Positions 8,805-53,662 are shown, counted from the first letter of the whole stretch. The stretch is 62,102 bases of DNA, filler included, from Dugesia japonica (GCA_001938525.1; 6 parts of 6 records of this genome joined end to end with filler, not necessarily neighbours in it); one strand, 5' to 3'. Notes: generated by a model not told the origin, from the letters alone. Program-made: numbers and translations.

Positions 8805-9550
8805 TTGATGACAAGATTAAGATGTGAAAATTCTTTACAGTAAAAAATATAAATAATTGTGGGATCGTGAAGGTTGATGTAATGTTACCCTGATTCGACC
8901 TCACCGAGAAACATTTCAAACAATTTCACATAAACCAGCCAAATAAACCAGAGCAAATGAATTAATTACTATAATTTATTATGATTAATAAATTAGTATA
9001 AATTATTAAAATTTTATAAAATACTAATATAATCTTATTAATTATTACAAAATATTATTATTAAAACAATGCAATAAATGAATAATTTTATAATTTTAAT
9101 TCTTTTAATAAATATTTTATGTTGTAAATGTTATTTTTCTAATGAAAATAAAGTGAATAATTTATCACTACATTTTTTAAAAACTGTATAAAATAAACTA
9201 TTTAGTGCTACAAATGAAAATAATTATAAAAATATTTCAAATAATAAATTATTAGAAATCATTACTATTTTATTTCTCTTAAAAATCCATTTTCCCCTCT
9301 GATATTTTAATAAACCTTTTTGTAATATTTTCTAAAAATAAATTGTTTAAATTGTAAATTTTATATTATTTTATATTATTTTTTAATTTTATTTTATATT
9401 AAAATATTTTTTGTANAATAATTAACAAGCATTTTTGGTTAGGAAAAATAATCTTTTTCTGCAAAATAATTTGTTTCAATTAATCATTTTGTATATTTTA
9501 ATATTTCCAAAATGATTCAGATAAACAAAATCGAAAGAAATCAAATCTTG

Positions 9551-11880: not shown

Positions 11881-12149
11881 GAGTGTGGCGCTCGCCAAAG
11901 TGAAAAATGAAAATGAACAGCTAATTATAACCTTTGAAAATCAATTGATCATTTATCAAGTTGACATGAGTAAACTCAAATTTGGTAACTTTTTTTTCGA
12001 AAACATCATACGTAACTCAAAAACTATCGAAAAAGATACTATTTGATAGGAATATTTACAGTGAGTACAAATAGCACAATTAGAAATCAACAAACCTTAT
12101 ACATAAAAAGTTATATAGAAAAAACAAGTACTTTATTTGGTAAGGAAAA

Positions 12150-12610
12150 AATTAGGGTAATATTGGTTAGGTTAATTTGGTTAATTTTTGGATAATTTGA
12201 TCATTTATTTACTCGGTTTAGGTAATATTGGTCAATTACTTACTCGGAAATGATCAGTTTGTTTAATTTTAGGGCGATTCAGTCGAATATTTACTCAGGA
12301 ATAAAAGTTTTGGATGATTTGGTCAATTATTTCCTCGGCTTGGTTGGTGGGGGTGATTCTTTTGTGATTCGTTAAATTACTTACTCACAATAATTAGATT
12401 TTGGTTGACAGTGCTCAGATTTTGGTTGATAGTTCTCAGATGTTAAATGATTTGGTCAATTATTTACTCATTGTGGTTAGTTTTGGGTGGTTTTTGGATG
12501 GTTATGGTCAATTATTTAAAAACAAGGGTAATGGTTCGATGATTTTGGGTAATTTTTTCAAGCTTCTTAGTTGATAATAATTTTCAAGCCATTTAGTTGG
12601 TGATAATGTT
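12150..12610 (-). repeat. Copy of the dispersed CCGAG-AAATAATTGACC repeat module (reverse orientation)
   Basis: Degenerate units GGTCAATTATTTACTCGG are the reverse complement of the units at 16390-17500. Confidence 0.75.
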
Positions 12611-15795: not shown

Positions 15796-16390
15796 TCATA
15801 AAATTGAAGGCGGCCACATCATCGTCGCTGTTCCAAGGCGGTTTACCAGATCAGCTATATATTGTTCCAAGAATTCGATCTTATGGGTGAGAATCTGCTT
15901 GGTGTGCTCTGCCAGCTCACCCTGTTTTTTGACGATCAGGTCTAACTTTTTTATTGAGCGATTTTGCTGTGTAAGATGACACAGAAGAGCCTGATCATTT
16001 TGGTGTCGAACGTACCTTTCTAGTAGAAGTTTTTGAATGAGGCAATGACATCTACGAATGCTCGTGGGCAGTTGTATTCTGAGCACTGCAAGAAAAACAT
16101 GGATTTAAAACTACAACACAAAACCATTAAATCATTAAGATTGTCATAGAATAAGTGGTTAAGTTAAAATTAGACAATCAATTTAACCAACAGAATTTTT
16201 CTTGAAAACGAAAATAACAGTCACAGAATTTGTCACGGCCGCGTAGTTTGAGTGGACTTATCCACCATTAAAGGTTCAAGTAACATGGTTTTCCTCAACT
16301 CCATTATGTCGTTGACTAGTTTATTCTCTCGGTCATGGAGGGACCGGATGGTATCAACAAATTACTCCAGCTGCTTTTTCCACAGCCATT
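15796..16390 (-). pseudogene. GC-richer coiled-coil ORF remnants of unknown function next to the repeat module
   Basis: A 96-aa heptad-like ORF at 15796-16086. An upstream broken frame reads ...RENKLVNDIMELRKTMLLEPLMVDKSTQTTRP*. Confidence 0.4.
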
Positions 16391-17690
16391 CTAAATAATT
16401 AACCAAAACCAGACAAAAATCATCCAAAACTAACCACCATGAGTTTATAATTGACCAAGATTACCTAAATTAAGTAAATAATTGACCAAATTGTCCAAAC
16501 CCGAGAAAATAATTGACCGAATTTACCAAACAATTACTCTTGTGAGCAAATAATTAACCATTCCCGAGGAAAAATTTGATTGAATTCATCTAAAACCGAT
16601 TAAGTTTGCCCGGATTTGACCTCACCGAGAAAATTTAAACCTATTTCACCTAAACCATCCAAAAGATTACCAATGACGACAAAACATTTGACCAAGTCAT
16701 CCAAAAAATTACCCAAGCTGACCATTCCCGAGGAAATAATTAACCAAATAACCCAAAGATTTCCCAAATTAACCATTCCCATGGAAATAATTGACCGAAT
16801 TCATCTAAAGAAAAACCCTTGCGAGCACATAATTAACCAAGTTTGTCCAGGTTTGTCCTCATCGAAAAAATTTTGAACCAATTTCACCTAAACCATCCAA
16901 AAAATTTACCAATCAAGAGAAAAACTTTGACCAAGTCACCCAAAATTTATCCAAACCTAGCAATCCCGAAGAATTATTTGATCAAATCACCTAAAAATAA
17001 CTTTAAACCATTCAAATATTGATCATATTCTACCTCACCGAGAATTTTTCAATCAATTTTACCTAAATCACCCAAAAATTACCAATACCGAGGAAAAATT
17101 TGAACAATTCACCCAAAAATTAGCCGAACCGAGCAATCCGGAGGAAATATTGGATCAAATTTATCTGAACCAACCAAAAATTAACCTTATTTGACCTTAC
17201 CGAGAAAACTTAGGACAAAAACCACCTAAAACCAATCAAAAATTACCCAAATTGACCAACCCTAAGGAAATATTCAACCAAATCTCCGATAAATTACCTA
17301 AAACCGACCAAGTTTGCCCAAACTGACCAATACCGAGGAAGTATTCGACTAAATTCGCCGGAACCGACCAAAAATTGATCTTATTCAACCTTATAGAGGA
17401 AATTTGGGACAAAAATCACTAAAAACTAAGAAAACATTGACCTCATTCAACCTCACCGAATAAATTCACAACTAAAAAGCCCTAAAAAATATTGCTGCTT
17501 AAAAAACTTGAAAAAGTTTCTTAACTAAATACACAGTAAAATTTAAAAACTGTTAATCCTATTTTATAAAATTTCACCGAGGAAATTAATCTGATGACAT
17601 AATTTGTGTGCAAAAATAATTTGTCAACTAAATACACAGAGAAATTTAAAAACAGTAACGTAATACTGTCACGACGAAATTAATTACATT
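16390..17690 (+). repeat. Longest copy of the repeat module: degenerate ~35-45 bp tandem array plus conserved tail
   Basis: Many CCGAG(G/A)AAA(T)AATTGACC units, followed by the tail AAAATTTCACCGAGGAAATTAATCTGATGACATAATTTGTGTGCAAAA...CAACTAAATACACAG. Confidence 0.85.
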
Positions 17691-30267: not shown

Positions 30268-31921
30268 ACAGACTATTTGAAGCAAATAGAAAGTAAAGAA
30301 AAAGAGATGGCTTTTAAAGCAAAGAAATTAATACGTTTTCTAAATGAAGATATTATTTTCTCAATCAACAGAGAACTTCACAAAATTCGCTTAGTTTTTA
30401 TTTATATTGAATATTTGAAAAAAATTTACCAAATCGAAAAAGATATTTATTCAAACATAGAAGAATTAATTAGAAAAGAATTAATAAGGGTTCCAATACA
30501 ATCAATTTNTTCTCATAATTTCATGAATGCGTTGAGATTATTAATTATTGATTTATTATCTAATAACTATATTAAACTGGAATATTTCAATATCGGAAAA
30601 GTGTTGATATTATATTTTACTAAATATTTAGATAAGAGAAAGTATATTCATTTTATTAATAGCATAAACTACTCAGATAAATCAATATATTCAAATTTGA
30701 AAGAAATGGTTGGACGACAATGTCAAATGTGTATGGAAATTCCTAGTCAAAATTATATGGAAATCCCGTGTCAAAATTGCAGAGAATTATATTTGAGAAC
30801 TAAATGGAATTATCATATGAATGAAAATAAAATCTGTAAACCGATTTCAAATTTAGAAGAATTAAAAGATAAAGTCGTACAACAATATTTAAATGATGAA
30901 AATCATTTTAAAAAGATGAAACTGTCGATAATAAATTCCAATTTAACGTCTATCAAATCTGCACTCGATTCAATAGATCGCATCACCTATGCGANNNNNN
31001 NNNNNNNNNNNNNNNNNNNNNNNNNNNNNNNNNNNNNNNNNNNNTTCTCATAATTTCATGAATGCGTTGAGATTATTAATTATTGATTTATTATCTAATA
31101 ACTATATTAAACTGGAATATTTCAATATCGGAAAAGTGTTGATATTATATTTTACTAAATATTTAGATAAGAGAAAGTATATTCATTTTATTAATAGCAT
31201 AAACTACTCAGATAAATCAATATATTCAAATTTGAAAGAAATGGTTGGACGACAATGTCAAATGTGTATGGAAATTCCTAGTCAAAATTATATGGAAATC
31301 CCGTGTCAAAATTGCAGAGAATTATATTTGAGAACTAAATGGAATTANNNNNNNNNNNNNNNNNNNNNNNNNNNNNNNNNNNNNNNNNNNNNNNNNNNNN
31401 NNNNNNNNNNNNNNNNNNNNNNNNNNNNNNNNNNNNNNNNNNNNNNNNNNNNNNNACTGTCGATAATAAATTCCAATTTAACGTCTATCAAATCTGCACT
31501 CGATTCAATAGATCGCATCACCTATGCGACTAAAGAGGAAAATCCCCAAGATGTGATTTCTCACAGTTTAAATATATCGTTTATCCTTACGTACACAGCT
31601 AGATTGTATTACGAATTCTTTATGAATATGTTTATCCATAGTCTCCATTGTCATCATCCTTCAAGTAAAACCGATTCGATTTATCAATCAGAATTAATTA
31701 CCAGCAAAAGTGCTGTTAAAAATATGCTTAAGCTATTACATTATATGGAAGAATTTTTCATTGATTATCGAAAATTATCGTTACAAAGACGTATTGAAAA
31801 ATTTAAACCAAAAACAAAGGATTTACTGATATCTTCTCTTTACATTCTTGATAAATTTCAAAATACCTATGAAATTCATAGAAAATTTACTCAATTTTAC
31901 TCCTTTTTGTTTTCTTGTTAG
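30268..31921 (+). CDS. Large exon of an unidentified helical host protein; 5'-truncated and internally duplicated by the assembly
   Basis: Long open frames of 258 and 310 aa in ~75% AT DNA. 30510-30994 is duplicated at 31045-31528 across an N gap. Contains CQMC...CQNC. Confidence 0.6.
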
Positions 31922-32569
31922 ATTTATTTGAATTGAAAATTTAAAAAAAAATTGGAAATAAATAAATGTGATTACTTTTTGATGTTTCAAATTTTGTGGT
32001 TTAAAATATTGACATTTTTGAAATATTATTTATACAAAATATATTTTCAAGTTAATTTATTATTTCTTTCATACTGTTTAAACATTTTTATATTTCGTGT
32101 GCAAGTATGACTCTGCTTTTATTATTTTTGAATAATTTTTTTTGAAGCTGTGAAATGTTATTGGAAGTGCAATTTAAGTGATAAAATACTTAAGTTAAAT
32201 AATGAAACCGAAAACTGGTTGGATTTTAAAATCATAGACNNNNNNNNNNNNNNNNNNNNNNNNNNNNNNNNNNNNNNNNNNNNNNNNNNNNNNNNNNNNN
32301 NNNNNNNNNNNNNNNNNNNNNNNNNNNNNNNNNNNNNNNNNNNNNNNNNNNNNNNNNNNNNNNNNNNNNNNNNNNNNNNNNNNNNNNNNNNNNNNNNNNN
32401 NNNNNNNNNNNNNNNNNNNNNNNNNNNNNNNNNNNNNNNNNNNNNNNNNNNNNNNNNNNNNNNNNNNNNNNNNNNNNNNNNNNNNNNNNNNNAATTTATT
32501 TTACTCTTTCTTGACCTCATTTCATATTTAACAATTCGATGTAATATCTAGAGACATACATAAAAACTA

Positions 32570-33060
32570 CAAGTATTTATGGTACCTTTGTACCATGCCC
32601 CTTTCTTTCCTGAGCCCAGCGCAACTATGCGGTATCGTGAAACTCACTCTTATAACTCCTGGACAACTCGCTCAGTCAATATTCGTTATTGTATTTAAAC
32701 CGTGATTTTAATTTCATAGGACATACAACAAAATTCGAAACAACTCAACGAACATCAATTCATATTTATTGATATATACTATTCTCCTGCCACTACGCGT
32801 TCAGATTCACCGTTTTGTCCGGATTGTCGGTAAACTCTTCTGACAACTGGTAATTTAACCAGAATGTTTGAAGGGTGAGGAGCATTGTGGCTTCTCTGCG
32901 TATACTTTCACGACATATGCCAATAATCTGTTGGCCTGTTGTAGGGTCAGCTCTTTTTCTTTCAGTTGTTATAACTTGCAAGATTGTTTCACCGCCTGGC
33001 CCTTGAATCTTAACACCTCATTTTGGAGTTCCTTGTGCTCTTCTTTCTATCAATAATTAA
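32570..33060 (-). pseudogene. GC-richer coiled-coil ORF remnants upstream of a repeat-module copy
   Basis: Broken frame KEEHKELQNEVLRFKGQAVKQSCKL*QLKEKELTLQQANRLLAYVVK. Same position and orientation relative to the module as 15796-16390. Confidence 0.35.
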
Positions 33061-33399
33061 TAATTTATAAATAATTAAATATTAATAAACAATTAAATAT
33101 TAATTAAACTGTACATATACTACTAGTAAAAACCTGCAAATAGTGGATTAAAACCAGCAAGTAATAGAAAAGACAAGTATTCAGTAAGATCATTGATAAC
33201 TGAAATCCAATGCACTGTGATCAGAACACTGAAATCCAATGCATAGCAATCATAACACTGTGATCAGAGCTTTGATAAGTTAGTAATTGTGAAGTGTGGG
33301 TAAACTAATACATAAATAGGCTGAAATAAATAATAATAATAATAAAAAATAATAAAATAATACCAAATCTGAGTCGATTTATGTTCTCTTTGAATTGAG

Positions 33400-34092
33400 A
33401 TATGAGCGCTAATATCCGAGTTTTGAGATTTTTCACCACATATTTTCATTTATTTCAATGAATATTGACTTTGGCGATTTTAGATCAATATATTTGGAAT
33501 TATCCAAAAATTCTTTATCGAATTATTTATCTTTACCTCTTATTAACATATTTTAGAAGAAAAGTTTTTTCGAAAAATTTTTATTTGTGAAAAATAATTA
33601 CCGCAAAATTCTTAGCAGTTTGGTATAAAAATCTTTTAAATATGATATAAAAAACATATTTTTTCAAACCTTTAGACTGTTCATCCAAATTCCCATAAAT
33701 ATTTCATTAAAAAATTTTAAATGTTCTTATTATTTAAACAACATGAACGGTTTGCCNNNNNNNNNNNNNNNNNNNNNNNNNNNNNNNNNNNNNNNNNNNN
33801 NNNNNNNNNNNNNNNNNNNNNNNNNNNNNNNNNNNNNNNNNNNNNNNNNNNNNNNNNNNNNNNNNNNACTTAATAATATTACCGCCTAAAAGCCTTAAAA
33901 ATTTCCCAACTAAATTCATTGGAAAAATTCAAAAACAGTTAATCCTATTACATAAAATTTCACCGATGAAATTAATCTGATGACATAATTTGTGTGCAAA
34001 ATTTTTTCCCAACTAAATACACAGGGAAATTTAAAAACAGTAACGTAAAAGTTACTTAATGATGCAATTTTTAAATTCCCAACTAAATGCAT
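33400..34092 (+). repeat. Copy of the repeat module
   Basis: CCGCAAAATTCTTAGCAGTTTGGTATAAAAATC is shared with 45300. The tail AAAATTTCACCGATGAAATTAATCTGATGACATAATTTGTGTGCAAAA is shared with 17570 and 45685. Confidence 0.8.
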
Positions 34093-34397
34093 TAGGCTTA
34101 AATTTTATTAGGTCACGGGGTTCTTACCGAATGTGTTATGTTCTTGACTCATACTATATATATACATTAGGATTAAATTTCATAACATCACTATACTGGT
34201 GGTGGTGGGTTACTGAATGTGTGCTGTTTTTCCCTGCCACTATCCATCTACTATCGGGCAGTCTTGATATTCTGATATTATTGCAAGATATTGTATTGTA
34301 TAGTGTATTATTTACATAGTAACCGTGTATTATATGGTTTATTGGTGAATTATTTACATAATATCCCGTATTCTAGGGTTAGTAGCTAGTAACATAT

Positions 34398-34890
34398 GCT
34401 TATAAACCTAGCTTTCGGAAATCATTCAAGATTGCAGAAAACCTTATAGTAACTTAAATGAATAAAGATTCAGTATGTTTAGATCGTCCAAGCTACATTG
34501 GTCAATCTGTACTTGACTTGAACAAATTACGAATGTACCAGCTACATTACATCAAACGAGAAGTACAGAAAAAAGAAAAATGTAGTATTATTATTTTAGT
34601 TGGTGATACTGACTGCAATTTCTTTCTAGATTTGGAGGATATAAGTATAGGAAAACTGACTGGATATATAAAGAAAGACGGTTTATTAGATACTTTAAAC
34701 AATAGTAATACAATGAATTATATTATTGGCAGGTGTAAAGATGAAAATAAGGGAAAGAAGTATTTAGAATATATATTCTTACGTCAAAAATTTTACAGCT
34801 TGCTTTCTGAGAAAGAAACAATGAAAAAAAGACTTAACGTTGAAAAATAGCGGCATCAACCATCAGACATATGTTGACTGCTATAATTGT
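34398..34890 (+). pseudogene. Polinton/Maverick-type protein-primed DNA polymerase B, C-terminal remnant
   Basis: LDRPSYIGQSVLDLNKLRMYQLHY (KPxYxGxxILDLSKxxMY motif), GDTD(C) motif C, LDT..N, IGRCKDE and EYIFLRQKFYSLL. Confidence 0.85.
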
Positions 34891-35109
34891 GATAAAAAGG
34901 TCTCAATGTATTTTTAGTGTATAAAATATATGTTTTATTGACAAATAAAACAAAAATCTTGGTTATTTTTGAAATAATACTAAACAAAGTACTCTATTTA
35001 TTAAACTTGTTATATTTGTTTCATATTATGTATTAAATTTTGTGAACTTGTCATGAACATGAGACGAGCATGAATTTACATTACTTCCTCATATTTCTTG
35101 GTTAATTTG

Positions 35110-35602
35110 TAGTTAAACCATATATTACACGGTTGCTATGTCAATAATATACTCATAAACCCTATAATACATGGTTACTATGTCAATAATACCTTATAAT
35201 ATTGGGTTGCTATGTAAATAATACAAGGTAACTATGCAAATAATACACTCGTAAACCTTATATTTCACGGTTAATATGTAAATAATATACACAAACTTTA
35301 TAATACAGCGTTACTATGTAAATATTACACCCATATACCTTATAATATTTGGTTACTATGTAAATAATACAAGGTAACTATGCAAATAATACACTTGTAA
35401 ACCTTATATTTCACGGTTGATATGTAAATAATATACACACAAACCTTATAATACAGCGTTACTATGTAAATAAAACACCCATATACCTTATAATATATGG
35501 TAACTATGCAAATAATACACTCGTAAACCTTACATAACACGGTTAATATATAAATAAATAAATAAATCATAAGCCTTATAATACAAGGTTACTATGTAAA
35601 TA
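35110..35602. repeat. ~40-bp minisatellite (GGTTACTATGTAAATAATACAC...AACCTTATAATAC); inverted relics at 34310-34385
   Basis: About 12 tandem units with higher-order periodicity. Confidence 0.85.
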
Positions 35603-35609
35603 TTTGTTA

Positions 35610-35741
35610 CATGACAATTCGACACATGAAAAATCGACACACGACAATTCGACACATGACAAATCAACAACTGACAAATCGACACAGAGACAATTAGACA
35701 ATTCGACACAGAGAAATTGACATATAGACAAATCGACACAT
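35610..35741. repeat. 15-bp minisatellite (GACAA(T/A)TCGACACA)
   Basis: About 8 tandem units. Confidence 0.85.
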
Positions 35742-36185
35742 ATTTTTTATAATTTTTTAATATTTTTTTATTATTTTTAATAACTTTTTGNNNNNNNNNN
35801 NNNNNNNNNNNNTTTTTGGTATAATTTTTAATAAATATAATATATTCATAAACCTTATAATACATGATAAAAAAATTTTTACTGAATTTTTGAAGTATAA
35901 TTTTTAATACTGAACTTTCTTGTTATAATTTTAATAATAAATTTTTTTAGTATAATTTTTAATAATGAATTCTTTGGTATAATTTTTAATACTGAAATTT
36001 TGACGTATAATATTTAATACTGAATTTTATTGGTATAATTTTAATAATACATTTTTTTGCTATAATTTTTAATACTGAATTTTTTTCGTATAATTTTTAA
36101 TACTGAAAATTTGAGGTATAATATTTATTACTGAATTTTATTGGTATAATTTTAATAATAAATTTTTTTGCTATAATTTTTGTAA
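35742..36185. repeat. ~29-bp AT-rich minisatellite (TATAATTTTTAATACTGAATTT)
   Basis: About 12 tandem units. Confidence 0.85.
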
Positions 36186-39100
36186 TGTTATAATATTGTT
36201 TGTAATAAACTTGTAATGTTTTGTATGTTAAGACTTGATGATTGTGAGCATTGTGTATGTTAATACTTATTGATAGTGAGTATTGTTTATGTTAAGACTT
36301 AATGATAGCGAATATTATATTAAGTGTGATTGATAGGTGTATAATGTACATTAAATGTATTTAACCTGTATTTTCAAAGATTTTATGATATTAAGATAAA
36401 AATACGCGAATGATTGACTGAATTATTTGTTTTGATTAATATCACAATCAAAGTACTTTTGATTGAATGAACAATTGGTAGATTGTATATAGTCACTTGT
36501 CAGTATTAGAGTCATTATTACAGAAAGGTTTATGAAAATTTTAACAAGCTTTAGAAAAGTTTGTGAAAGTTTTTAACGATAATTAAAATGTTCATGTAAA
36601 TTTCAGATAAAATTATTTGACTTCAAGTAAAATAATACTATAAGATATTACTATTTCACTCCTTCTTTTCATCATTGGCATTAGCTTTCTCACACTCTTG
36701 TTCTTACTTATAATTTTTTATAACTTAAAGCAATGAANNNNNNNNNNNNNNNNNNNNNNNNNNNNNNNNGATAAGAAATAATTGAAGAAGTATTATATAT
36801 TTGTCAATATGTTGTTCTAAATAATAAATTATAATTTAGTAGAGCCTACTTATAACAATCGGTTTATGGAATACATCTGGTTTAATGGTCTTATATTCAA
36901 TGATAAAACCAATATTTGTATTATAAAACCCACATTTTCCTGTTAAAACCAGTACATTTGTGATAATATTCATATTTGCCTTGTAACATGTATTTTCCAT
37001 TAAACTTACATTTTTAATGTTGAATCAAGTATTTCTAATGACGTGATTTGTATTTTCTATGTTGAACTCATATCTTTTAACAACTTTACTGATAATTGTG
37101 TATTTAAATAAAATAAACCATGAAAAACAAAGTGCAAGCCAGGTTGCCAAGGTGCATGCAGGGAATCAAGGAGCTAGCAAAAAGTAGAAGAATAATCAGA
37201 TGATGAAAAATATACTGAAAAGGCTATATTATTTTAAATAAGAAGCACGTCATATAGACTCTTACTCACTATCACTCAGTCTTATTATCTTCTTTTATCT
37301 CTAAATGTTACTCTTTAAAGATTAAGATCCAATAGAAATTAGAGGAAAATATAGCTAAATAATAATAAATGATGGAAAATAAAGAACAATATAGCTAAAT
37401 ATGGCTAAATAGGGGTAAATCAGGAAATTATAGCAAAAATAAATAAAGTAGATGAAAATGGTAGGAAAATAGGCAAAAAAGTGACAAAAAATAGACTAAT
37501 TAAGCATATTAAATGNTTATGTATAGAATAAATGCAGTAAATAAAATCTCAACTGTTTTTTCTTTATTTTTTATTTTATTTCTTTTAAAAATTTATTCAT
37601 TAATTCATTTTATTTATTTATTTATTATTTTTGTTTTCAATTTGGGTTTTTTTGTTTTATATTTTTATTTTGTTTTTTTTTCAAATTTGATTTATTTATT
37701 TTTTTGAAATTTTTATTTTATGAAATCAACAGATGGAGAATTAAGAACTGCCTATACATTACCTAAAGAACTTGTATTGAAAAATGCATTTTCTATAAGT
37801 AATTCACCTTTGAAAGTGTAGAACATACCCCCATGACGTCCGATCGAGACAAAATTTTCAGCATAGATAGAGAAAATCAAAGTTAGATAGGAATGTCTCA
37901 TGAACTCGTATCCTAAAATTTATCCTTTCTTGTTAAAATAATATTTGAAAATTTAATTNNNNNNNNNNNNNNNNNNNNNNNNNNNNNNNNNNNNNNNNNN
38001 NNNNNNNNTCCTTTCTTGTTAAAATAATATTTGAAAATTTAATTATTTTTTATTACATATTCGATTGCGTAATAATTAAATTAAATACGTAATCAATTTT
38101 TAAAGATTTTGCAGTTTTTTGATTTTCCTGTGCTTAGCTTTCATCGTATAAAACCAAATTTGGTATTATTAGTCGCACAAAGTGAAGCCGCTCAATGTTA
38201 TCCATTTTAAAATTTATTCAGATCGGCTCCTAAAACGTTATAAAAGATTTTAATTAAAGAACACCACTATTTTAAAAGATATCGACTCAACATTTTACCA
38301 ATCTTCCTAAAATTAAAAACTACCTATACATTATCTAAAGTATTTGTATCAAAAAATGCTTCAATTCGTCACAAAAGGTATGATCGCACTGGAATACCCC
38401 CCTTGATGACAACCGATTAGGTCGAAAATTTATAGTTAGATGTAAAATTAAAAAGAATTATAGGAATTTCTCATGGACTTGTATCCTAAAATAGTTTTTT
38501 CTGTTGGAAAAACGGGAACAAAGGAATTTTTTTCTGGATAGAGTCTGGTAGAAACATAATATCGTGCCACGCTTTACATCGTTGGATGCGCAATTACACA
38601 ACGGAAAAATTAGTATATGAAAAAGTTCTAGTGACGTAATCATAAAAAGTTATTAAACAAAGAAACCTTTAAAAAGGAATAAAAGCCGCCATTTTGAATT
38701 TTTTAAAATTCTTTCTTTTAAAATTTGGTAAAGAATTAAAAACTATCTATACATTGTTTAAACGATTAGTATGAAAAACTGTATACATTACAAGAAAATC
38801 ACATAAGAAAGAACAAAGGACTTTTAAAAAAAATTTTTAAAATGTGTTTTTGGCAGCATTTCTTTATCAACATGTATCAAACTTGATATCATTAGCATAA
38901 TAATGAGACGAAAAATACGTCTGTTATGTTTTCAAAATAGTTTGATAAATATGTATCGATTTATTTGTCATTTAAACTTTAAACATAAATAAAAATGAAT
39001 AAATTAACTACTGACAAATTTTAAATAGATAAAATTTATTTTAAAATGATTATGGAAAATTTTTAAATTTATTTATATAACATTCGTGTTGCACATGTCA

Positions 39101-41046
39101 TATTTAATGAAAATAAACACACATACAAATACTTTGTTATATTTTCATAGACTTCTAAGTAATTTTTATAAAATTTCACCGACTTCTATGTAATTTTTAA
39201 AATTTTTTGTTGACTTTTATGTAATTTATAAAATATTTCACCGACTTTTATTTAATTTATAAAAAAGTGTAATGACCTCTATGTAATTTTTTAAAATCTT
39301 TTAAAGACATCTAATTAATACATTTGGAATGCCTATGTAAGATAACACACAAAATTAATATTTTAAATAGATGAGTATATTTGCTGTATAATGTGTATTA
39401 TATGGCTCTATTTAGTTTATTGTTTGTATTTAACTGTATGTATGGTGTTTATTATATGTTTTAACTAGTTCAATTAAGTTATTTTTGTGAGCATTGATTA
39501 TTGAAAACTAGTGAACAGTGGTCAGATCTCTTATGACNAGTGCACAGCTAGCATAGTTTTGATGTCTGAGGACTAATGCAAAGACTTCAGAATATTGATG
39601 ACTGAGTACTAGTAAACAGAGATTTGATAACTGAGGATTAGTGAGGTGTGAGAAAAGATCAATGAAGAGCAAATTATTATATAAAGGAGTTAAAACCAGT
39701 CAAAAAGTAGACCTGATTAGATATTAAATTTGACTGAGCATCTAATTTTAACATTAATACTGTTTGGAATCATCCATCATTTAATATTACTAGAAAACAA
39801 CCTATATGAAGTACTTGTTTTTTGATTTATTTCATTAAAGATAAAGTTTGACAAATATTATACTAATATTAATGAATTTTATGTTTGTTTAATCGCATCA
39901 AATTAATTAAAAACATGTGTGTAATTATTTTGTATGAACACGTTTTATTTCAAAATTTTAAAATTCAGATAAACAAAAAGTGATTTTTTTAATTTNNNNN
40001 NNNNNTTTTAATTTAAATGTTTAGAAAAAATGAAATTTTCAACCAAATGTTATGATGAAAATTGAAAATATTTGAATTATGAAAATTAAATCCGGTTAGT
40101 TTTGTTAAATTTAAAATTTTTAATTGATTTTGGTAATGTGTTACTAATGATTTTAATTTGGATTTAGAGTCAAATAATATGAATGACGTATGTATTTTAA
40201 TTAAAATTAATAGTTAATTATATTAACATTTTTAAAAAAACTTTTTTAAATTCATTGTTTGTAATAAATGTAAACTTTTGAAATTTCAAAATTGAATTTG
40301 ACTGGGTTTAGAAATAATAAATTCAAAATATAGACTAAGTTCTTTAAGTTACTTAGAATTTTAATAAATTTATTTAAAAGTTTAATAAATATACTAAGTT
40401 CTATAACCTTTCTTGAATTTCATTAGATTTTCACCAACCGCCCAACTGGACCAATAAATAACATAAATTATGATCCAGATTTTAAGAATTATATGAAAAA
40501 TGTAATGAAATCAGTTGGGATTTGTTGATTATTTTAAATGTTCACCATTTATTTTAATTATTACTAAAAATGTATGTATTTTCATTTACTTTAACTTTTG
40601 AAATTTGAATTTATTTGAATTAAATTATGATTTTATTGTTTCTTTTACGATTAACTTGATGACAATTAATTAATGATGAATTAAATTTTTGATGATTAGT
40701 TTAATAAATNCAATTAATTTATTTCAAATTTAATGTTATCAATTTAAATTTCATACTTACAAATTTTCTCAGGGACCAACTTATATAAAGTAATAGCTTT
40801 TTCAATTTTTTTAATCAAGGATAAAGATTGGTGATTTTTAACTATGTTTTTCGTACTCAACATAAAATTTTCTATTTAATAGATACCTTGGTGTTCAAAT
40901 TTGAGTTACCTTTTATTTTTCGACATTCTCATTAGAGATTACAATTATTCATGATAACAACCCATGATAAGTAATGTTTTTAATTTTATTCAGTTAATGA
41001 TAAAGTTTGACGTTATTTTATGTATTAATACTGATATTTCAAAAAA

Positions 41047-41120
41047 TTCTTATTCGTCCAGTGGTAAGAACTTACTTTTGCAACTCATTAGTGGTAGGTT
41101 CAAATCCAATGAATGATCAC
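41047..41120 (+). pseudogene. tRNA-derived cassette, copy 1
   Basis: A-box-like TCGTCCAGTGG (41054) and B-box GGTTCAAATCC (41097). The cloverleaf is decayed. Confidence 0.55.
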
Positions 41121-41390
41121 TTACTTTACACTGTTTTTTCGGATTTTACCAGTCTTTTATAATGTATGGCGATTTAAGATGATGCTATTCAGAATCAGTA
41201 AAACATTCTCTATCCAATAGATACTTTGATGTTTAAATTTGAGATACTTTTTTATTTTTTCAAAAATTTCAAAGACTAATTATCCATGAGAGCAACCCAT
41301 AATTAGTACTTGTTTTAAATTTATTTCATCAATAATAAAGTTTGATTATTTTTTATACGTATTAATAATAATATTTGAAATATATTCAAT

Positions 41391-41469
41391 TACTGCATGG
41401 TCCAGTGGTAATAGCAGTTCTTTTACAACTCATCATTGGTGGTTCGATTCCATTGAGTGACTATTTTTT
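41391..41469 (+). pseudogene. tRNA-derived cassette, copy 2 (Lys-UUU-like loop)
   Basis: A box TGGTCCAGTGG (41398), arm AGTT-CTTTTAC-AACT, T-arm GGTGG-TTCGATT-CCATT and a T6 terminator at 41464. The acceptor stem is imperfect. Confidence 0.6.
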
Positions 41470-41664
41470 CACTTTGTTTTTTCTTAATAACTCTTTATGT
41501 ATACAATTTGACGATTTGTAACTATGTTTTTCTTATTCAAAAGAAAATTTTCTATCGGATAGACTAGTTTAAAATTACATTCTAATTTCCCTTTAAAAAA
41601 TTCATAATTCCCTCCCAGACTCCCAAAATGAAGAACATGTTTTTTCAATATAACTTTTTATTTA

Positions 41665-43645
41665 TACAATTTGGTGATTTTCGGTTTATACATTTGGAAT
41701 CAGCAAACGATTCTCTATCAAATACATATCTTGTTGGGAAATTTTAAGATACTTTTTTAATTTTCGAAAAAAGTTACCAAATCCAAGAGGACTGCTGAAA
41801 ATCTTCGTTAGGAAGCATTTTTGTCGATACGATACTTTAACTTTACATAGTCACATTTTTNTTCTGAGTAAAATAATACTGAATTCAAAACCATACGAGT
41901 TATGTACGCAGAGAAAATTGAGCACCGAAATTCAAAATTTGAGATTTTCCCCATAAAATCTAATGTATTTCATCGGGTAATAACTTTAAGGATTTTAGGT
42001 TTATATATTTGGAATCAGCAAAAAATTTTCTATTTAATAGACATGATTACTGTATGTTAAGATGAGAAATAATTTTTTCGAAAACTTTTTATTTGTGAAA
42101 AATAATCTCCATCGAATTCTTCATTGATTGATGTAAAAATCTCGATACAAGATTTTTTCAAAAATTTTCGAATTTTTGGATGTTCTCCCGGATTCCAATA
42201 AAACTTTGATTTAAAAATTTTTAAAATCTGAAAATTTAAACAAAAATGACTTAATTTCATCAATATACCACAAAAAGATAAAATAATTTTAAAAACTTGA
42301 AAATTTAAACAAATTCCAGTTTTTCTATGAATTTCCGTAAAACTTCAACCCAAATTGACCATCCTGAAGAAATAATAGACACAATCACCCAAAAATTAAC
42401 CAAATCGATCATTCCCGAGGAAATATTTGACCGAATTCACCTGGACCAACCAAAATTCGATCTCATTCGATCTCACCGAGAAAATTCCCAGCTAAATATA
42501 CAGTAAAAATATTGCCGCCTAGAAAGCCTATTAAAATTTTCACAACTAAATACATAGTAAAAATAAAAAATACTGGATCACTTATGTAATAATCTCGTGA
42601 CGAAATTAATCTCGCACACATAAATTTTGNNNNNNNNNNNNNNNNNNNNNNNNNNNNNNNNNNNNNNNNNNNNNNNNNNATACAATTTGGTGATTTTCGG
42701 TTTATACATTTGGAATCAGCAAACGATTCTCTATCAAATACATATCTTGTTGGCAAATTTTAAGATACTTTTTTAATTTTCGAAAAAAGTTACCAAATCC
42801 AAGAGGACTGCTGAAAATCTTCGTTATGAAGCATTTTTGTCGATACGATACTTTAACTTTACATAGTCACATTTTTCTTCTGAGTAAAATAATACTGAAT
42901 TCAAAACCATACGAGTTATGTACGCAGAGAAAATTGAGCACCGAAATTCAAAATTTGAGATTTTCCCCATAAAATCTAATGTATTTCATCGGGTAATAAC
43001 TTTAAGGATTTTAGGTTTATATATTTGGAATCAGCAAAAAATTTTCTATTTAATAGACATGATTACTGTATGTTAAGATGAGAAATAATTTTTTCGAAAA
43101 CTTTTTATTTGTGAAAAATAATCTCCATCGAATTCTTCATTGATTGATGTAAAAATCTCGATACAAGATTTTTTCAAAAATTTTCGAATTTTTGGATGTT
43201 CTCCCGGATTCCAATAAAACTTTGATTTAAAAATTTTTAAAATCTGAAAATTTAAACAAAAATGACTTAATTTCATCAATATACCACAAAAAGATAAAAT
43301 AATTTTAAAAACTTGAAAATTTAAACAAATTCCAGTTTTTCTATGAATTTCCGTAAAACTTCAACCCAAATTGACCATCCTGAAGAAATAATAGACACAA
43401 TCACCCAAAAATTAACCAAATCGATCATTCCCGAGGAAATATTTGACCGAATTCACCTGGACCAACCAAAATTCGATCTCATTCGATCTCACCGAGAAAA
43501 TTCCCAGCTAAATATACAGTAAAAATATTGCCGCCTAGAAAGCCTATTAAAATTTTCACAACTAAATACATAGTAAAAATAAAAAATACTGGATCACTTA
43601 TGTAATAATCTCGTGACGAAATTAATCTCGCACACATAAATTTTG
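41665..43645 (+). repeat. Repeat-module copy present twice (41665-42629 and 42680-43645, nearly identical; probable assembly duplication)
   Basis: Near-identical ~965-bp blocks flank a 50-N gap. They contain TTTGGAATCAGC motifs, CCGAG units and the CAACTAAATACA tail. Confidence 0.85.
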
Positions 43646-44439
43646 NNNNNNNNNNNNNNNNNNNNNNNNNNNNNNNNNNNNNNNNNNNNTTAATTAATTA
43701 ANNNNNNNNNNNNNNNNNNNNNNNNNNNNNNNNNNNNNNNNNNNNCACAAATAACTCAATTGAACTAGTTAAAACATATAATAAACCCTATACATACAAT
43801 TAAATACATACAATAAAACGTATAGAGTCATTAAGTACATAAAATAAACCTATTATATACAATTACATACTCTCAATAAACCCAAAAGAGTTATATATTA
43901 CACATATTATTAAAGGTTTCCGGGGGAATATTAAAATTTTATTCATATTAATCTATATGTGCATCATAAATACATGATATGCAACGACAATGTAAAATAA
44001 ACAAAGGATTGATATAAACTTAACAACTGATNNNNNNNNNNNNNNNNNNNNNNNNNNNNNNNNNNNNNNNNNNNNNNNNNNNNNNNNNNNNNNNNNNNNN
44101 NNNNNNNNNNNNNNNNNNNNNNNNNNNNNNNNNNNNNNNNNNNNNNNNNNNNNNNNNNNNNNNNNNNNNNNNNNNNNNNNNNNNNNNNNNNNNNNNTTTG
44201 AAATTGACGAAATAGATGCAACATTAAAGAGAGTGATCAACGATACTCAACCAAATGATGATATTATTACAGAGAAACTGATTGATGCACAGCCAAAAAA
44301 AATGGGGGAAAAAAATCTTTGATTTATAATTTTCTTAGTCATTGGGGGTCTTTGTTCTGACTAGAATCATTAAGACTACATAAATAACTTTCCAAAATGA
44401 GTTTTTATGAAGGACATTCATTCTTTTGTAAAGAAACCT

Positions 44440-45366
44440 TTGAAAAAATATGTTTTATATTTCATATTTCAAAGACTTTTATACCAAACTACTGAGAATT
44501 TTACGGCAGTCTTTTTTGCACAGAATGTTTTGTAAAAAAATCTTTCTTTTCAAAAAAGGTTAAGAAAGTGTCTTTTCGGTAGAGAATATTTTGCTGATTC
44601 CAAATATGTTAACTTAAATCGTCAAAGTTAATAATCGATGAAGTAAATTAGTTTTTGTTGTGCGAAAATCTCAAAAATCAGATTTAAGCACTCAGTGCTT
44701 TGTGTGCAGGTGTCAGCTATCGACTCAAATTTGGTATTTTTTTACTCAGGAGAAAAATGTGTAAAAGTTAAAATATCTTCTCAAGAAAAATACTTCCTAA
44801 CGAATATTTACAGTTGTTTTCCCGGATTTGGTAACATTTTTCGAAAATATCAAAAGTATCTCAAACTTTAATAAAATTGATTCTATTCGATAGGAAATGT
44901 TACAGTGACTAACACAGTTAAAAATCAACAAACCATATACATAAAAATGAATATCAATAAAATTGTACTTAATTTTGAGTCTACCCCGAGTAACATTAAA
45001 ATAATAAAAACAAACTGTAAAAACTAAATAATAAGATAATATAATAAGATAAGATAAAGAGATTTTAACTTTGTACAGTCAAATTTTCTTCCTGAGTATA
45101 ATAATACCAAGTTTTAGTAGATAGATGGCATCTGCGTACGGAGCACTGAGTGCTAAAATCTGAATTTCGAGATTTTTTCAACACAAAACTTCATTAACAT
45201 ATTTGGAATCAGGGAAAACTTCTGTACCGAATAAACACTTTTTTAACCTATTTTTGAAAAGAAAGATTTTTTTCGAAAATAATTCTGTGCAATAATGATC
45301 GCCGTAAAATTCTCAGCAGTTTGGTATAAAAATCTTTGAAATCTGAAATATAGAATATATTTTTTC
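44440..45366. repeat. Long imperfect inverted repeat (foldback), arms about 44440-44770 and 45075-45366
   Basis: TTTTTATACCAAACTACTGAGAATTTTACGGC versus GCCGTAAAATTCTCAGCAGTTTGGTATAAAAA. GCACTCAGTGCT versus AGCACTGAGTGC. CTGATTCCAAATATGTTAA versus TTAACATATTTGGAATCAG. Confidence 0.8.
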
Positions 45367-45790
45367 AAAAGATTAGACTGTTCATCCAGATTCCCATAAA
45401 AATTTCATTTAAAAATTTTTAAATATTCATATTATTTAAACAGCATGAACGGTTGGCCAGGATTCCAATAAAAAAATTCTAACAAAGAAATTTTCACAAC
45501 TAAAAAGCTTGAAAAAATATTACCTCTTAAAAGACCTTAAAAATTTTCCCGATTAAAAAGCCTAAATTTAAAATTATTTGGTCAAATTTTTCAAAACACG
45601 ATTAAGAATTACATAATTTCTGTGCAAAAAAATTTTGTCAGCTAAAGTCATTGGATCAAATGGCCTGTCTTAATCTTATTTCATAAAATTTCACCAATTA
45701 AATTAATCTCTTTACATAATTTGTGTGCAAAACTTTTCCCAACTAAATGCCTAATATGATGTCATTTTTGATTTCCCAGCTAAATGCATT
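45060..45790 (+). repeat. Copy of the repeat module, immediately upstream of the TBP-like locus
   Basis: Collinear with 33400-34092, ending at the same TGATG(T)CA(A)TTTTT..TTCCCA(G/A)CTAAATGCATT. Confidence 0.8.
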
Positions 45791-46216
45791 ATTACATCAT
45801 TACATCACTAATCTTGGGGGTACTTAATGTTTGCAGAGGTTTACAAATAAAATTTCAAAATATATTACACAACACAATTAGTTTATTTAAACATTTTAGT
45901 TGAACAAGGAGCGTTTTCTTCTTCATCATCCAAAAGTTTTCATCAAGTGAACTTATTGATTGAATCGACGTTTTACTGTCTTCATCTATAAGATTTTTTT
46001 CATCATCAGTCATATTATTGATCATCCAAAATGGTTATTTGTATGAAGAAAGCTTCAAAACTTCATCAATTATCTGAGTTGCTTAATCTCTGATTATGAT
46101 TAAAATCGTTTCTTTACTATTCATGACTGTAAACTATTTTTCAATTGGTATATGGATTTTGTTTATACTTAAAAAATTATAAATGGATGGAAGCAGGTTA
46201 TTTTTATTTTGTAATT

Positions 46217-46646
46217 ATGTTGTCAAATATAAACTATAAAGGATATACTTCACAAAAATTTGATAGTCTTCAATTTGGTTATGAACCAAAACAATGTGTA
46301 TTAAAGTACCGAGATTATACAATAATCATATTTTCAAATTGAAAATGTAGAATGATGGGTTCCAAAAACCAATAGAAAGAAACAAACTTTCATTCGAGAT
46401 AATTGTTGATAAAATACAATCAGTGACAATGACCCCTTGGTTGGAGATGTCAATAGATTTAGAAAAATTAATGGAAAAGAAAAATTGTATATATGAACCG
46501 GAAATATTTCCAGGTCTTTGATTAATAAAATACAATCCTTTATGTGTAAACGTTTTTCATTTTTGACAATAGTAATAATTGGTTTGAAGACTTCAGATTT
46601 TTTTGATGATGTAAATACAATATATGTATTAGATTTAATGAAATAA
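46217..46646 (+). pseudogene. Compact intronless TATA-binding-protein (TBP)-like pseudogene, about 143 codons
   Basis: Repeat 1: MLSNINYKG...PKQCVLKYRDYTIIIFSN*KCRMMGSK. After a frameshift, repeat 2: KIQSVTMT...IDLEKL...CIYEPEIFPGL*LIKYNPLCVNVFH-IVIIGLK. Canonical TBP has LIFSSGKMVCTGAK, KIQNMV, YEPELFPGL and LIFVSGKVVLTGAK. Confidence 0.8.
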
Positions 46647-46769
46647 ATGTATTAACTTTGTTTTTTATGTCTTGCTTATTAATTAATAAAGTTATACGTA
46701 AATAATAAATAAAGTTAATAATAATTGTTCCACGTGTAATCACGTTAAAATGCAAAAAAATTAATTAAT

Positions 46770-50043: not shown

Positions 50044-50510
50044 TTATGTGTTTAAATTATACCCATATGGTAAGCTGTTATTATTTTCTGTCCAACCTCG
50101 TTTATCGTCATTATTATTCAAAGTTCCCTTAGGTCCAAAGAAACTATATAATTGATGGTTCTTTGTTTTAATCCTAATCAGGTTTACTGAGACGGCTTGA
50201 TTGTTGTTATAACAATCTAGATAAGACTTATGTGTTAAGTCAGTGTCTTTTAATGTTATTTCCTTTTCCTTTATGTTTGTTTTTTCACTAAGAAGACTGT
50301 AACATTTCAGAAAAACCCATTTCTTAAATTTATGATATTCTAGTCTTTGAACTTCCTTACTGCTGAATTTAAGTTGTTCTTATATAGTGTATAACTTGTG
50401 CTATAGTTTGAAGTGTCTAATAATTTATTGTTTACTATTGATTCCAATAACTTTTCCATTTTATTTTTTTTTACTTCCAAGAAAAGGTTATCGGTATCAC
50501 CAGTAGGTAG
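50044..50510 (-). pseudogene. Polinton/Maverick-type protein-primed DNA polymerase B, extreme C-terminal remnant
   Basis: GDTDNLF, LLDTSNY and KFKD, then a frameshifted CYSLLSEK...HKSYLDCY...KNHQL...NDDKRGWTENNNSLPYGY*. DDKR..PYG is the typical Maverick pPolB terminus. Confidence 0.88.
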
Positions 50511-50689
50511 ATAGTGGCGCATAACACTACTTGAATTTTAACAAAATTAAAGCCCCCCTTTCCCCTTTCCTCCTGTAGTGTTTAAAAGTGATGTTGAATT
50601 TTTTTAAATTTTTTATAAAGAAATTAAAAGTGGGGTTTAAATTTTTAAAATAAATTAAAAGTGGTGTTTAATTTTTAAAAATAAATTAA

Positions 50690-51330
50690 AAGCGGAAATA
50701 TTTTTTCAGGTTTTTAGCGGTAGAATTTTTACTGTGTATTTAGGTGGGGAAATTTTTAGGCTTTTTAAGCCTAATATTTTTCACGTGTATTTAGTTCGGA
50801 ATTTTTTTGGTGATGTAGAATGAGGTTGATTTTTGATTAGTTCAGACGAATTTGGTTAGGAAGTTTTTTCGATGAAGTCGAATTTTAGTTGGTTCAGTTA
50901 AATTTGTTCAAAGGGTTTCTCGGTGAGATCGATTATGGTCAATTTTGATTGGTTTAGAGTAATGTTTTGATGACTGGGTCGAACTTTTCCTTAGGATTAG
51001 TACCTTTTAAGATGATTGGATCAAATATTTCCACGGGCTGGTCAGTTTGGATGATTTTTTGGGTGAATTGGTCAATTATTTACTTGGTTTAGATAATATT
51101 AGTCAATTATTTTCTCGGGTTTGGTTAATTTGGATCATTTTGGATGATTTTGTTGAATTATTTTAGATTTTAAAATTTTTTAAATCAAATTATTATAGGA
51201 ATACATGAAAAGTACTAAAATTTTGAAAAGTTTTTGAAAGTTTTTGTCGAGATTTTTATATAATTCGATGCAAAATTCGAAGAAGATTAAATTTCACAAA
51301 AAATATTTTTCGAAAAAATTATTTCTCATC
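50690..51330 (-). repeat. Copy of the repeat module (reverse), directly upstream of the pPolB remnant
   Basis: TTTTACTGTGTATTTAG, TTCTCGGTGAGATCGA, GTCAATTATTTTCTCGGG and TTTTCGAAAAAATTATTTCTCATC are reverse complements of 42060-42560. Confidence 0.8.
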
Positions 51331-51334
51331 CTTT

Positions 51335-53662
51335 CATGAAATGAAGTTTGTTACTATCCTCAAGGGGTCAAAAAGTGGGATGATATCGGAAAAGTTACAG
51401 AAAAAGGATACAGATTCTCAAAGAGGGAAAATTTTGCGGATGATAGAAAAGTAGAATTGGTTGCAACAGTTGAAGCAGAACAGAAAACAAATATTTCGTA
51501 CCATAAATTGCAAGGCAGAACAAGTGTTACGGTATCAATTCAAGAAAATTAAGTCGAATGTCTATTAGATACATAGGTTAGAATTAACGTTGAGTTTGAG
51601 ATCTTTTTAATAAATTACGAGAAGTACATTTAGAAATGAGTGATGAAAGATTGCGTTGTGCAAATAATAGTACACTTGAAATTGTTGCGAAAAAGTTAAA
51701 ACCAGAGTGATAATTGATGAAGTTTGCAAAGAGATTACTTTCTTAGTTGCTGAAAGAGTGACACTAGATCTGATAGGATCAATAGATATTCAGAAGANTT
51801 TTGGATATCAGCTTAAGCGAATGGTTGATAGCCAAGCGGATGAAAAAGTTGAAAATTACTTTGGTATATTGAAGCGAAATTTGGGAGACAAATTAAAAAA
51901 GGAGACCGATTAATAAGAGCCTTAAATATTTTGATGATTAAAGAGGATCAACGGTTATTGAAAACAATTGAAAGTAAAGAAGATACCTTAATGGCAGATA
52001 AACGGAATGTAGGACGCATACATCTAACAAGACACAAAATAAGCACAAGTGGTGAACCAATCAATGTAAAACCATATAGGCAACCAATGAACTCAGAATC
52101 TAAAATTGAGGAAGCTATCCAAAACTTTTTCGAGAATAATATTATTTGGAAATGCAACTCTCCTTGGAATACCGCATTGATTTGTGTTTGGAAAAAGGAA
52201 AATAAGGACATAAGAATATGTTTGGATTTCAGACAATTAAATGCAGTAACGAAAATACAAGCCTTTCCTATGCCTAATGTCAATGAAATGCTGGACAAGT
52301 TAGATAGAGCTAAATATTTCAGTTCAAAAGACTTTGGAAATACGTACTATAAAGTAGATCTCGAAGAAGAATCTCAAGAAAAAACGACGTTTTCAACGAA
52401 ACACGAACAATATTGTTTTAATAGAATGTCATTTGGCATCGCATTGGCACCAGGGACATTTTAGGAGATTATGACAAAAGTNGTTGGTGGAATCAATGTC
52501 ATCTTGATGAAATTGTAATATTTACGAACAATAAAGATCAACACTGTGAAGTCATTGAAAACGTATTGATGGAAATAAGGAAGGCTGGTTTAAGAACTAA
52601 TCCAGAAAAGTATCAGTTTCTTCAAAGCAAAATCAAGTTTCTTGTACACATAATTAGCATGGATGGTGTTAGAACTGATCCGTCTAAAATAGAAGCAATA
52701 AGAACTTTTTACAAACCTAACTGCGTGAAAAAGTTATGAAATTCCTTCGGAATTTGTAATTATTACAGGAAGTTTATAGAAAACTACGCAAAAAAGTCAA
52801 AGATATTAGAGAAGTTGTGTAGCGGACCAAGCAACACGAAATTAGAATGGACAGATGAAATAAACGATACTTTTTAGGATCTGAAATAATCTCTAATGAC
52901 TGCACCAATATTGTGTTTTTCAGGCATAAACAAAGACTTTATATTAGATACAGATGCCAGTTTCGATACAATTNGACCAGTATTGTCACAGAGAGATTAA
53001 GAAGAAAGAGAAAGAGTTGTTGCTTATAGATCACACTCAATAACAAGTTATGAAAAGGGATACTGCATTACACGAAAGTAGTTATTAGCTGCTTATTATT
53101 TTTGTATGCATTTCAAACATTACTTGTACGGTAGAAGATTTACTCTTAAAAGCTCTAACTTTCATGATGACGACGAAGAAACCAATCACATTACAATTCT
53201 AAACATGGATTAATTATCTGAGCAGTTTAGACATGATTTTGGAATATAGAAAAGGAATTCANNNNNNNNNNNNNNNNNNNNNNNNNNNNNNNNNNNNNNN
53301 NNNNNNNNNNNAGTTATGAAAAGGGATACTGCATTACACGAAAGTAGTTATTAGCTGCTTATTATTTTTGTATGTATTTCAAACATTACTTGTACGGAAG
53401 TAGATTTACTCTTAAAAGCTCTAACTTTCATGATGACGACGAAGAAACCAATTACATTACAATTCTAAACATGGATTAATTATCTGAGCAGTTTAGACAT
53501 GATTTTGGAATATAGAAAANGAATTCAACGTGGTAATGAAGATATACTATCTAGANCAAGATGTAAGGTATGTGTACAATGTCAAATGCCACATGAAGAT
53601 GCCAAGAAAGGGATAATTAAAACAAGAATACTGGACATAATTGAAAAGGAAAAAAGTAGATA
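51335..53662 (+). mobile_element. Ty3/Gypsy pol remnant (protease, RT, RNase H), truncated before integrase
   Basis: ECLLDT (protease), PINVKPYR, SPWN, RICLDFRQLN, YFSSKDF, RMSFG.ALAPGTF, FILDTDAS and YCITRK, with many stops and frameshifts. Confidence 0.93.

Follow-up and report, generated by a model that had tools for sequence, protein, structure and literature searches.

Several described systems come close to the repeat-rich DNA analyzed here. The most frequent end of vertebrate Maverick (Polinton) transposons is (AGT)2, according to an excerpt of its source (PMC8097293), and C. elegans offers, again according to an excerpt, terminal inverted repeats (TIRs) that lie beside genes for protein-primed DNA polymerase B (pPolB) without an integrase (10.1101/2024.01.15.575659). 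Excerpts of the rolling-circle literature place CTRY ends (PMC6544945) and Helitrons composed largely of minisatellites (PMC12001565) on record, and giant Gypsy elements that number thousands of copies and bear tandem repeats are recorded, in an excerpt likewise, from an AT-rich animal (PMC6431247); PMC2817418 is cited beside these three for the rolling-circle comparison. The window considered here, i.e., the whole 62,102-nt stretch of Dugesia japonica DNA (GCA_001938525.1), joins six small scaffolds of ~10 kb each by 100-bp linkers at 9551, 20203, 30168, 43646, and 53800, has a GC content of 26%, and is rich in decayed transposons (those of Gypsy type being assigned by Pfam). Within it, a non-coding repeat module recurs near relics of two Polinton genes, those for pPolB and for a TATA-binding protein (TBP)-like protein, for instance at 32570-37520. 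The reading that we favor, which falls somewhat short of an even chance, is that the module is one part of a non-coding repeat of very high abundance, a gene-less, non-autonomous element of Polinton type, which was inserted into dead relics or deleted up to them.

Self-comparison of the window, performed with background-corrected nhmmer and with alignments against shuffles (+1/-1 self-BLAST being prone to false matches in AT-rich DNA), resolves the module into block A (~630 bp; fullest copy at 41617-42249), block B (an internal repeat, degenerate and 200-1100 bp long), and a tail of ~250 bp, block C. The order is A-B-C wherever at least two blocks are joined, with the exception of the locus at 12150, where a fresh A start comes after B. 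Copies are 65-85% alike and vary in content, as follows.

8885..8953 (+): B relic, by shuffled alignment.
11950..12521 (-): module copy, B then A start head-to-tail; B opens with an inverted match (86%) to 16389-16458.
16389..17690 (+): copy with C and an expanded B; motif M (18699-18754), a 31-bp array, and block Z (18892-19617) lie downstream.
33352..33756 (+): block A, partial, then a gap of 111 N; E 1e-24 to 5e-17 against the copies at 45098, 44744, and 41870.
33868..34133 (+): conserved tail (block C), which matches 17482-17663 at 84.7% over 183 bp; its end is set by homology with 45833.
40773..42629 (+): two tandem partial A starts, then the most complete A-B-C copy, which the scaffold end cuts.
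44434..45833 (both strands): back-to-back pair of A at 44982-44434 (-) and A plus C at 45057-45833 (+), with arms 75-81% alike.
50502..51353 (-): module copy comprising the end of A, B, a short C, a 31-bp array, and motif M at 50502, by self-comparison.

A preliminary description of this DNA had proposed one and the same module at 12150, 16390, 33400, 41665, 45060, and 50690, with a relic near 8890. Blocks A, B, and C are shared across all six places, and the relic holds as a piece of B (56/68 identical, z 16.8), but the sameness does not: 16390 consists of B and C, 12150 of B and an A start without C, and 45060 of A and C without B, and at 33400 a gap stands in the expected place of B. Nor do the six loci lie on six different scaffolds; they sit two each on three. 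Five copies have a common A start and a variable 3' extent, and three of them stand head-to-tail; in the back-to-back A pair and in a B pair C faces outward, and inverted A and B pairs, 68-86% alike, are found in both polarities within the window. The stretch at 42680-43645, which repeats 41664-42629 at 99.7% beyond a gap of 50 N, is an assembly artefact. The module has no DNA match in 40 Polinton or TBP loci (the TBP gene alone being matched there), the tail patterns have none in metagenome, viral, and prokaryote collections, and Rfam gave no match. The starts of A show no AG end, target duplication, or A|TC start. That block A might terminate the transposon at 59500-61200 was also considered and ruled out (z 2.0-2.2).

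Depth was assessed by placing contigs from three DNA runs at 80% likeness on 32493-37600, parts of the window stretch being present in eight public runs of one organism; the summed depths do not equal copy number, and tandem units inflate the sums, but repeat and gene pieces differ by two to three orders of magnitude. Summed depth is 27-41 in a GC-rich open reading frame (ORF; bin 32664-32834), 93,000-161,000 in block A (33352-33756), 581,000-759,000 in block C (bin 33861-34031), and 648-2865 in the pPolB piece at 34386-34908; beyond this, it climbs to as much as 758,000 in a 42-bp array (35058-35228), drops to 12-95 at 35892 and 36003-36004, and reaches 92,000-639,000 across blocks X to Z. 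In all three runs, the C bin stands 18,700-22,200-fold above the low-copy bin and 265-955-fold above the two pPolB bins. The gap between module and pPolB (34361-34364) has a depth of 8-16 in one contig per run, and seven of the 24 listed contig pieces start at 34396-34411, with unaligned letters before them; the module-pPolB junction at 34386 is therefore not amplified and stands at single-locus depth.

The Polinton genes beside these repeats are present as broken pieces.

34386..34908 (+): dead C-terminal fragment of Polinton pPolB, residues 1000-1183 of the relative P0005 (1242 aa, PF03175 and PF02945).
50053..50501 (-): second dead C-terminal pPolB fragment, residues ~1073-1225 of P0005, starting at the edge of motif M.
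46214..46646 (+): intronless, full-length, broken TBP-like gene, PF00352 at E 4e-7, with three frames covering residues 1-146.

Both pPolB pieces had been placed correctly, near 34398 (+) and 50510 (-), in the preliminary description, as had the TBP-like gene, which it had placed together with an acidic ORF in 45890-46646. The first pPolB piece has one stop, one frameshift, and two cut ends; the two fragments, both broken, start ~70 residues apart and are identical at 188 of 302 positions (62%) where they overlap. The TBP-like gene carries two frameshifts plus stops. Nineteen pPolB relatives were found at E 6e-41 to 9e-25, 14 of them with PF03175, and in a tree built from short alignments with a midpoint root (P0017 being dropped as 99.5% identical to L015), both pieces group with P0001-P0003 or P0002-P0003 inside a clade that holds the TBP-bearing loci L008 and L015; L039 and L040, which have no TBP match, are set apart with support 100/100. 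The TBP-like family is compact (145-152 aa; nine relatives at 53-72%) and occurs at 38 loci in the metagenome-contig scan, 12 of which carry Polinton core genes (10 of the 16 loci of at least 2.5 kb). TBP, an A32-like ATPase, an rve integrase, a capsid, and a convergent pPolB stand together in L008 and L015, and adenain protease, rve integrase, A32-like ATPase, and jelly-roll capsid are encoded by the intact members L008, L015, and L024; the ATPase and integrase are Pfam matches, and the protease is a Pfam match in L024 and a similarity in L008 and L015. The L008 capsid has no sequence match in PDB and is identified as a double jelly-roll solely by a fold search, in which its low-confidence model (pLDDT 51) matches virophage and nucleocytoplasmic large DNA virus capsids. 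The minor capsid and PZ labels given to genes of the TBP loci are presumed from gene order. As core genes accompany TBP and the window's pPolB pieces group with L008 and L015, a single Polinton clade encodes both TBP and pPolB, and TBP is native to it. Beyond the core, genes for a ubiquitin-conjugating enzyme and a dual-specificity phosphatase occur among the relatives, as does a small conserved ORF next to the protease (L015 225-719; L005 4008-4316; L024 5870-6352), and TBP itself precedes the ATPase in some loci and follows the protease in others. The excerpt of PMC8502044 (section 3.4) contains a figure legend that deals with MELD viruses having an adintovirus-like PolB and includes a 'TBP' gene label. 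A literature search outside supplements such as those of PMC8502044 and PMC8097293, found nothing joining Polinton, TATA-binding protein, and protein-primed replication, and titles and abstract beginnings named no high-copy Polinton-derived miniature inverted-repeat transposable element (MITE). With P0005 and the TBP alignment as queries, no viral loci were retrieved. In one RNA run, 1388 of 1878 placed reads are less than 90% alike to the window, and three pPolB bins are strand-biased (31.2, 4.75, and 12.7 versus 4.07, 0.15, and 1.38), which, for a library with conventional stranding, would suggest transcription of a diverged pPolB copy at another place.

The preliminary description had named the alternative to itself: a very high-copy, independent repeat whose distance to pPolB and TBP fragments is random. 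The first half is borne out, as repeat depth is hundreds of times that of the gene pieces, and the second is not, at least within the window, where a tail is 130, 253, and 381 bp away from the respective Polinton relics (joint P 1.5e-5 under random placement). Three of the four testable tails have a Polinton gene beyond them, none following 17690, and the tail at 42629 lies at a scaffold edge; since the proximity threshold was post hoc and the window was chosen for its pattern, these figures support the link but do not measure it. That independent repeats of very high copy merely piled up by chance, with relics ending near the module because abundant insertions set their breaks, is improbable: 10,000-fold depth swings over 5 kb with three single-locus troughs would suit such piling, as would the choice of window and the fact that the same family cuts Gypsy relics, yet the constant A-B-C order and a block Z found twice downstream of C-M in the same orientation, together with the P value above, speak against it. 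pPolB had also been described as the next sequence after the 33400 tail, which it is not, as 253 bp of motif M and two types of minisatellite lie between.

A feature missing from the preliminary description, motif M (AGTAG.TRGATAGTRG, 17 nt, followed by a C-rich tract), supplies a candidate for the end of the element.

34197..34252 (-): motif M, AGTAG..GATAGTRG at 34252, with C-rich tract; candidate element end, 44/60 identical to 18699-18758 (z 10.7).

M has nine matches in the window at no more than two mismatches, against 0.55 in 20 shuffles, four of the nine having served to define the pattern. In the alignment, M has a sharp left edge, and it lies distal to C in three loci (18754, 34252, and 50502). 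The second pPolB frame starts at 50501, the first base outside M at 50502; a Gypsy reverse transcriptase (RT) piece likewise starts at an M edge (M 9679, ORF 9680), and a Gypsy pol piece ends at one (ORF 53654, M 53655). AGTAG is present in seven of the nine matches and the full AGTAGT in one, while the opposite strand reads CTAC|T, which fits CTRY and, equally, a CT-3' Polinton end. Folding of eight ends gave no conserved hairpin beyond shuffles (z -1.62 to +0.86), a perfect 7-bp stem appearing in one. A partial M at 45830 was considered and ruled out, the sequence being the end of C, and the M pattern hit three loci in the viral collection, none with a pPolB match, which are taken as chance. 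M also occurs without an adjoining module at 9679, 26837, 27956 (the copy with the perfect 7-bp stem), 28688, 53655, 56074, and ~20580, the last of these standing after a GC-rich coiled-coil ORF remnant and before a 31-bp array like that at 50603-50692.

Contact with Gypsy relics raises the further notion that the blocks are parts of long, tandem-repeat-rich long terminal repeats (LTRs) of a giant Gypsy element, for which the AT-rich animal cited at the outset is a precedent and to which two module copies that adjoin Gypsy relics would lend color. Within 60 bp of 10 block ends, though, neither a primer-binding site nor a purine tract is present, the junction of the 50502..51353 copy at 51332 falls in mid-gag of its Gypsy relic, and the Gypsy at 9680-11600 appears from its sequence to have a short LTR of its own, so that this notion is very improbable; it and chance piling are the least likely readings of all.

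If the module belongs to a non-autonomous Polinton-type element, as we favor, M would be its outer end (AGTAG..., like the AGTAGT of Mavericks), and C, B, and A would lie inside, forming a long terminal repeat rich in minisatellites. The family would be copied and integrated by polymerase and integrase provided in trans from intact helper Polintons, and insertion into Polinton relics followed by later deletion would leave gene scraps just outside the ends. The genes would then be targets rather than cargo, and 32570-37520 would be an old nested mosaic and not a mobile unit.

A number of observations weigh against this reading, some of which favor one of two others. The reading assumes that the family favors Polinton-rich sites, and M was compared with published Maverick ends rather than with those of an intact Polinton from the same genome; the clade context, similarly, was drawn from the L loci rather than from the neighbors of the closest relatives of pPolB (P0001-P0003) and TBP (P0020-P0025). 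No scaffold, at ~10 kb, holds paired M ends that enclose an element, the 10 flanking hexamers include no matching pair that would mark a target duplication, and no scaffold presents a left and a right end in order; the tail at 45833, beside TBP, has no M. Homology between the M copies at 18754 and 34252 extends 4 nt beyond the edge, and block Z follows C-M in both of its copies in the same orientation, so that M may be internal at these two loci. All three Polinton relics, moreover, read away from the tail, and the succession 45057 (+), TBP (+), pPolB (-), and 51353 (-) has the same convergent arrangement as L008 and L015, which random insertion would produce one time in eight. Proximity and orientation are explained more simply if the module is the TIR of a TBP-Polinton, with A outermost, and if the loci are old internal-deletion derivatives with gene scraps inside and no active polymerase of their own. 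This alternative, which 45057-51353 with its L008- and L015-like layout would suit, is a doubtful one, although it draws further on tandem arrays at the contig ends of relatives in three of nine loci (33 bp in L008, 24 and 31 bp in L005, and 92 bp in L024) and on the C. elegans precedent. The arms of 45057-51353 are just 68% alike and differ in make-up, no ATPase, integrase, capsid, or protease match lies between its TBP and pPolB, and A lacks an AG end or target duplication; M, furthermore, would have to be internal, yet it cuts two Gypsy relics as well, and other pairs in the window face the opposite way.

Also counting against the favored reading, M ends are co-oriented within scaffolds (2/2, 3/3, and 2/2), which fits a one-ended element better than one with TIRs, and joints from C to M (33941-34209) and across pPolB (34333-36138) recur in 3/3 DNA runs, with a short side of 24-25 letters that flags them as weak. 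These features would suit an unlikely account in which the family is a non-autonomous rolling-circle transposon of Helitron or Helentron type, A being its fixed 5' end, M on the opposite strand its 3' end (CTAC before a target T), and flanking DNA being captured by read-through. The A start common to five copies of variable 3' extent, three of them head-to-tail, the one-sidedness of M without target duplication, and the recorded CTRY ends and minisatellite-based Helitrons all agree with it. It is opposed by the lack of a conserved hairpin in the eight folded ends and of an A|TC start in A, by the shortness of the joints and a captured junction that is not amplified, and by its failure to explain three captures of Polinton genes only. 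RepHel, for its part, was not found among the window ORF pieces scanned, in a scan that was not an exhaustive six-frame search.

The Polinton link proposed in the preliminary description is thus retained, the gene pieces coming from one Polinton clade and lying nearer the tails than under random placement, while the composite element built upon it is not. Dead pPolB scraps with different breakpoints and spacers, together with a single-locus depth at the tested junction, argue against an amplified composite that carries pPolB and TBP or replicates itself, and a composite with TBP as cargo is at odds with TBP being native to the clade and with a window that has no relics of integrase, ATPase, capsid, or protease (16 proteins from L005, L008, L015, and L024 match pPolB alone at E 0.05). 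The repeat family behaves most like a non-autonomous Polinton end but is left unclassified, as its placement among Polintons would take paired ends, target duplications, or an intact helper. A bolder version of the favored reading, and a speculative one, would hold that a gene-less family of thousands arose from the minisatellite-rich terminal repeat of a TBP-Polinton and homes into and breaks its helpers as a MITE-like parasite. In its plainest terms, the finding is decayed transposon DNA; it extends the relics of TBP-encoding Polintons to a further genome and supplies an abundant, unclassified repeat with a candidate end motif. Should a Polinton-derived, helper-targeting family of thousands of copies prove true, protein-primed elements would be able to drive amplification on a MITE scale, and a reason would be at hand why most Polinton copies are found broken.

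The remainder of 32570-37520 consists of an ORF remnant and further repeats.

32570..33060 (-): GC-richer broken ORF remnant of low depth; 39% GC, no Pfam or PHROGs match.
34253..34383 (-): two minisatellites in short pieces, the first also present at 23371-23436 and the second copying the 42-bp array at 35114 in inverted orientation.
35086..36181 (+): arrays of minisatellites with periods of 42/146, 15, and 28 bp, by tandem-repeat detection and depth.
36222..37459 (+): array X (32 bp) followed by a spacer and block Z; non-coding and repeated at high copy, by self-comparison and depth.

Two blocks shared between loci were recovered much as first described (14900-15060 with 36220-36320, and 19050-19620 with 36890-37520): 14922-15054 matches 36225-36352 (93/128), and 18916-19615 matches 36703-37419 (E 1e-13), the X-Z spacer showing no homology between the two loci (z -0.4). 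The GC-richer remnants at 15796-16390 and 32570-33060, in turn, had been considered a common coiled-coil flank; both have 39% GC, but they share no DNA or tblastx similarity, and the ORF at 15799-16104 has no relatives in two protein searches. An inverted 70% match links 21823-21943 to 32520-32637, on a different scaffold, and covers the 3' end of the 32570-33060 remnant. A 31-bp minisatellite lies at both 15295-15456 and 18755-18880, flanking a 3.3-kb stretch with an ORF remnant, B, C, and M that looks as if it had been inserted into the array or tandemly duplicated. Inverted copies of the 42-bp minisatellite (34288-34383 and 35086-35611; 84% over 62 bp) flank the first pPolB piece.

Other ORFs in the window are without assignment. 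The acidic ORF at 45890-46140 has no match in Pfam, PHROGs, or 244 ORFs of the 40 loci; 47300-48244, between TBP and pPolB, has ~310 codons in one frame with three stops and no match in Pfam, PHROGs, or the Polinton loci; and 30271-31000, a region doubled across a 50-N gap as an assembly artefact, has an open frame of 240 codons, marked by a cysteine cluster and a repeat of 24 bp, and matches no family. Gypsy relics lie at 9680-11880 (where 131 bp are duplicated in tandem and a short LTR accompanies a purine tract and a primer-site-like sequence), 51332-53654, and 56160-57300, with 51332-52139 and 57046-56290 being 80-84% alike. Further remnants are presumably, by their motifs, a cut-and-paste transposase (59500-60950), a hAT C-terminus (7100-7320), a Penelope-type RT (54300-54650), and a GIY-YIG domain (2950-3150).

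Compared with known systems, the family shares modular minisatellite blocks, head-to-tail partial copies, a common start, and a one-sided candidate end (CTAC|T) with Helitrons and Helentrons (Heli2Xen, DINE/HINE), from which it departs in having no conserved hairpin or A|TC start and in that the flanking gene pieces are not amplified. It resembles Polinton_CE_TIR of C. elegans, as described in the excerpt cited above, in placing a long terminal repeat beside pPolB without an integrase, there involved in rearrangements; that TIR is tied to intact elements (63/107), and the repeat of the window is far more abundant. From Polintons/Mavericks (adintoviruses) at large, the window differs in showing no relic of integrase, ATPase, protease, or capsid and, on its ~10-kb scaffolds, no paired ends or 6-bp duplication, and the abundance of its repeat blocks far exceeds that of vertebrate Mavericks (mean of 22 and maximum of 287 copies). 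The likeness to Polintons nevertheless extends to a pPolB whose family has an endonuclease VII domain, a TBP-like gene, a clade whose intact members possess the core genes, and a motif M that resembles the (AGT)2 end given in the excerpt of PMC8097293.

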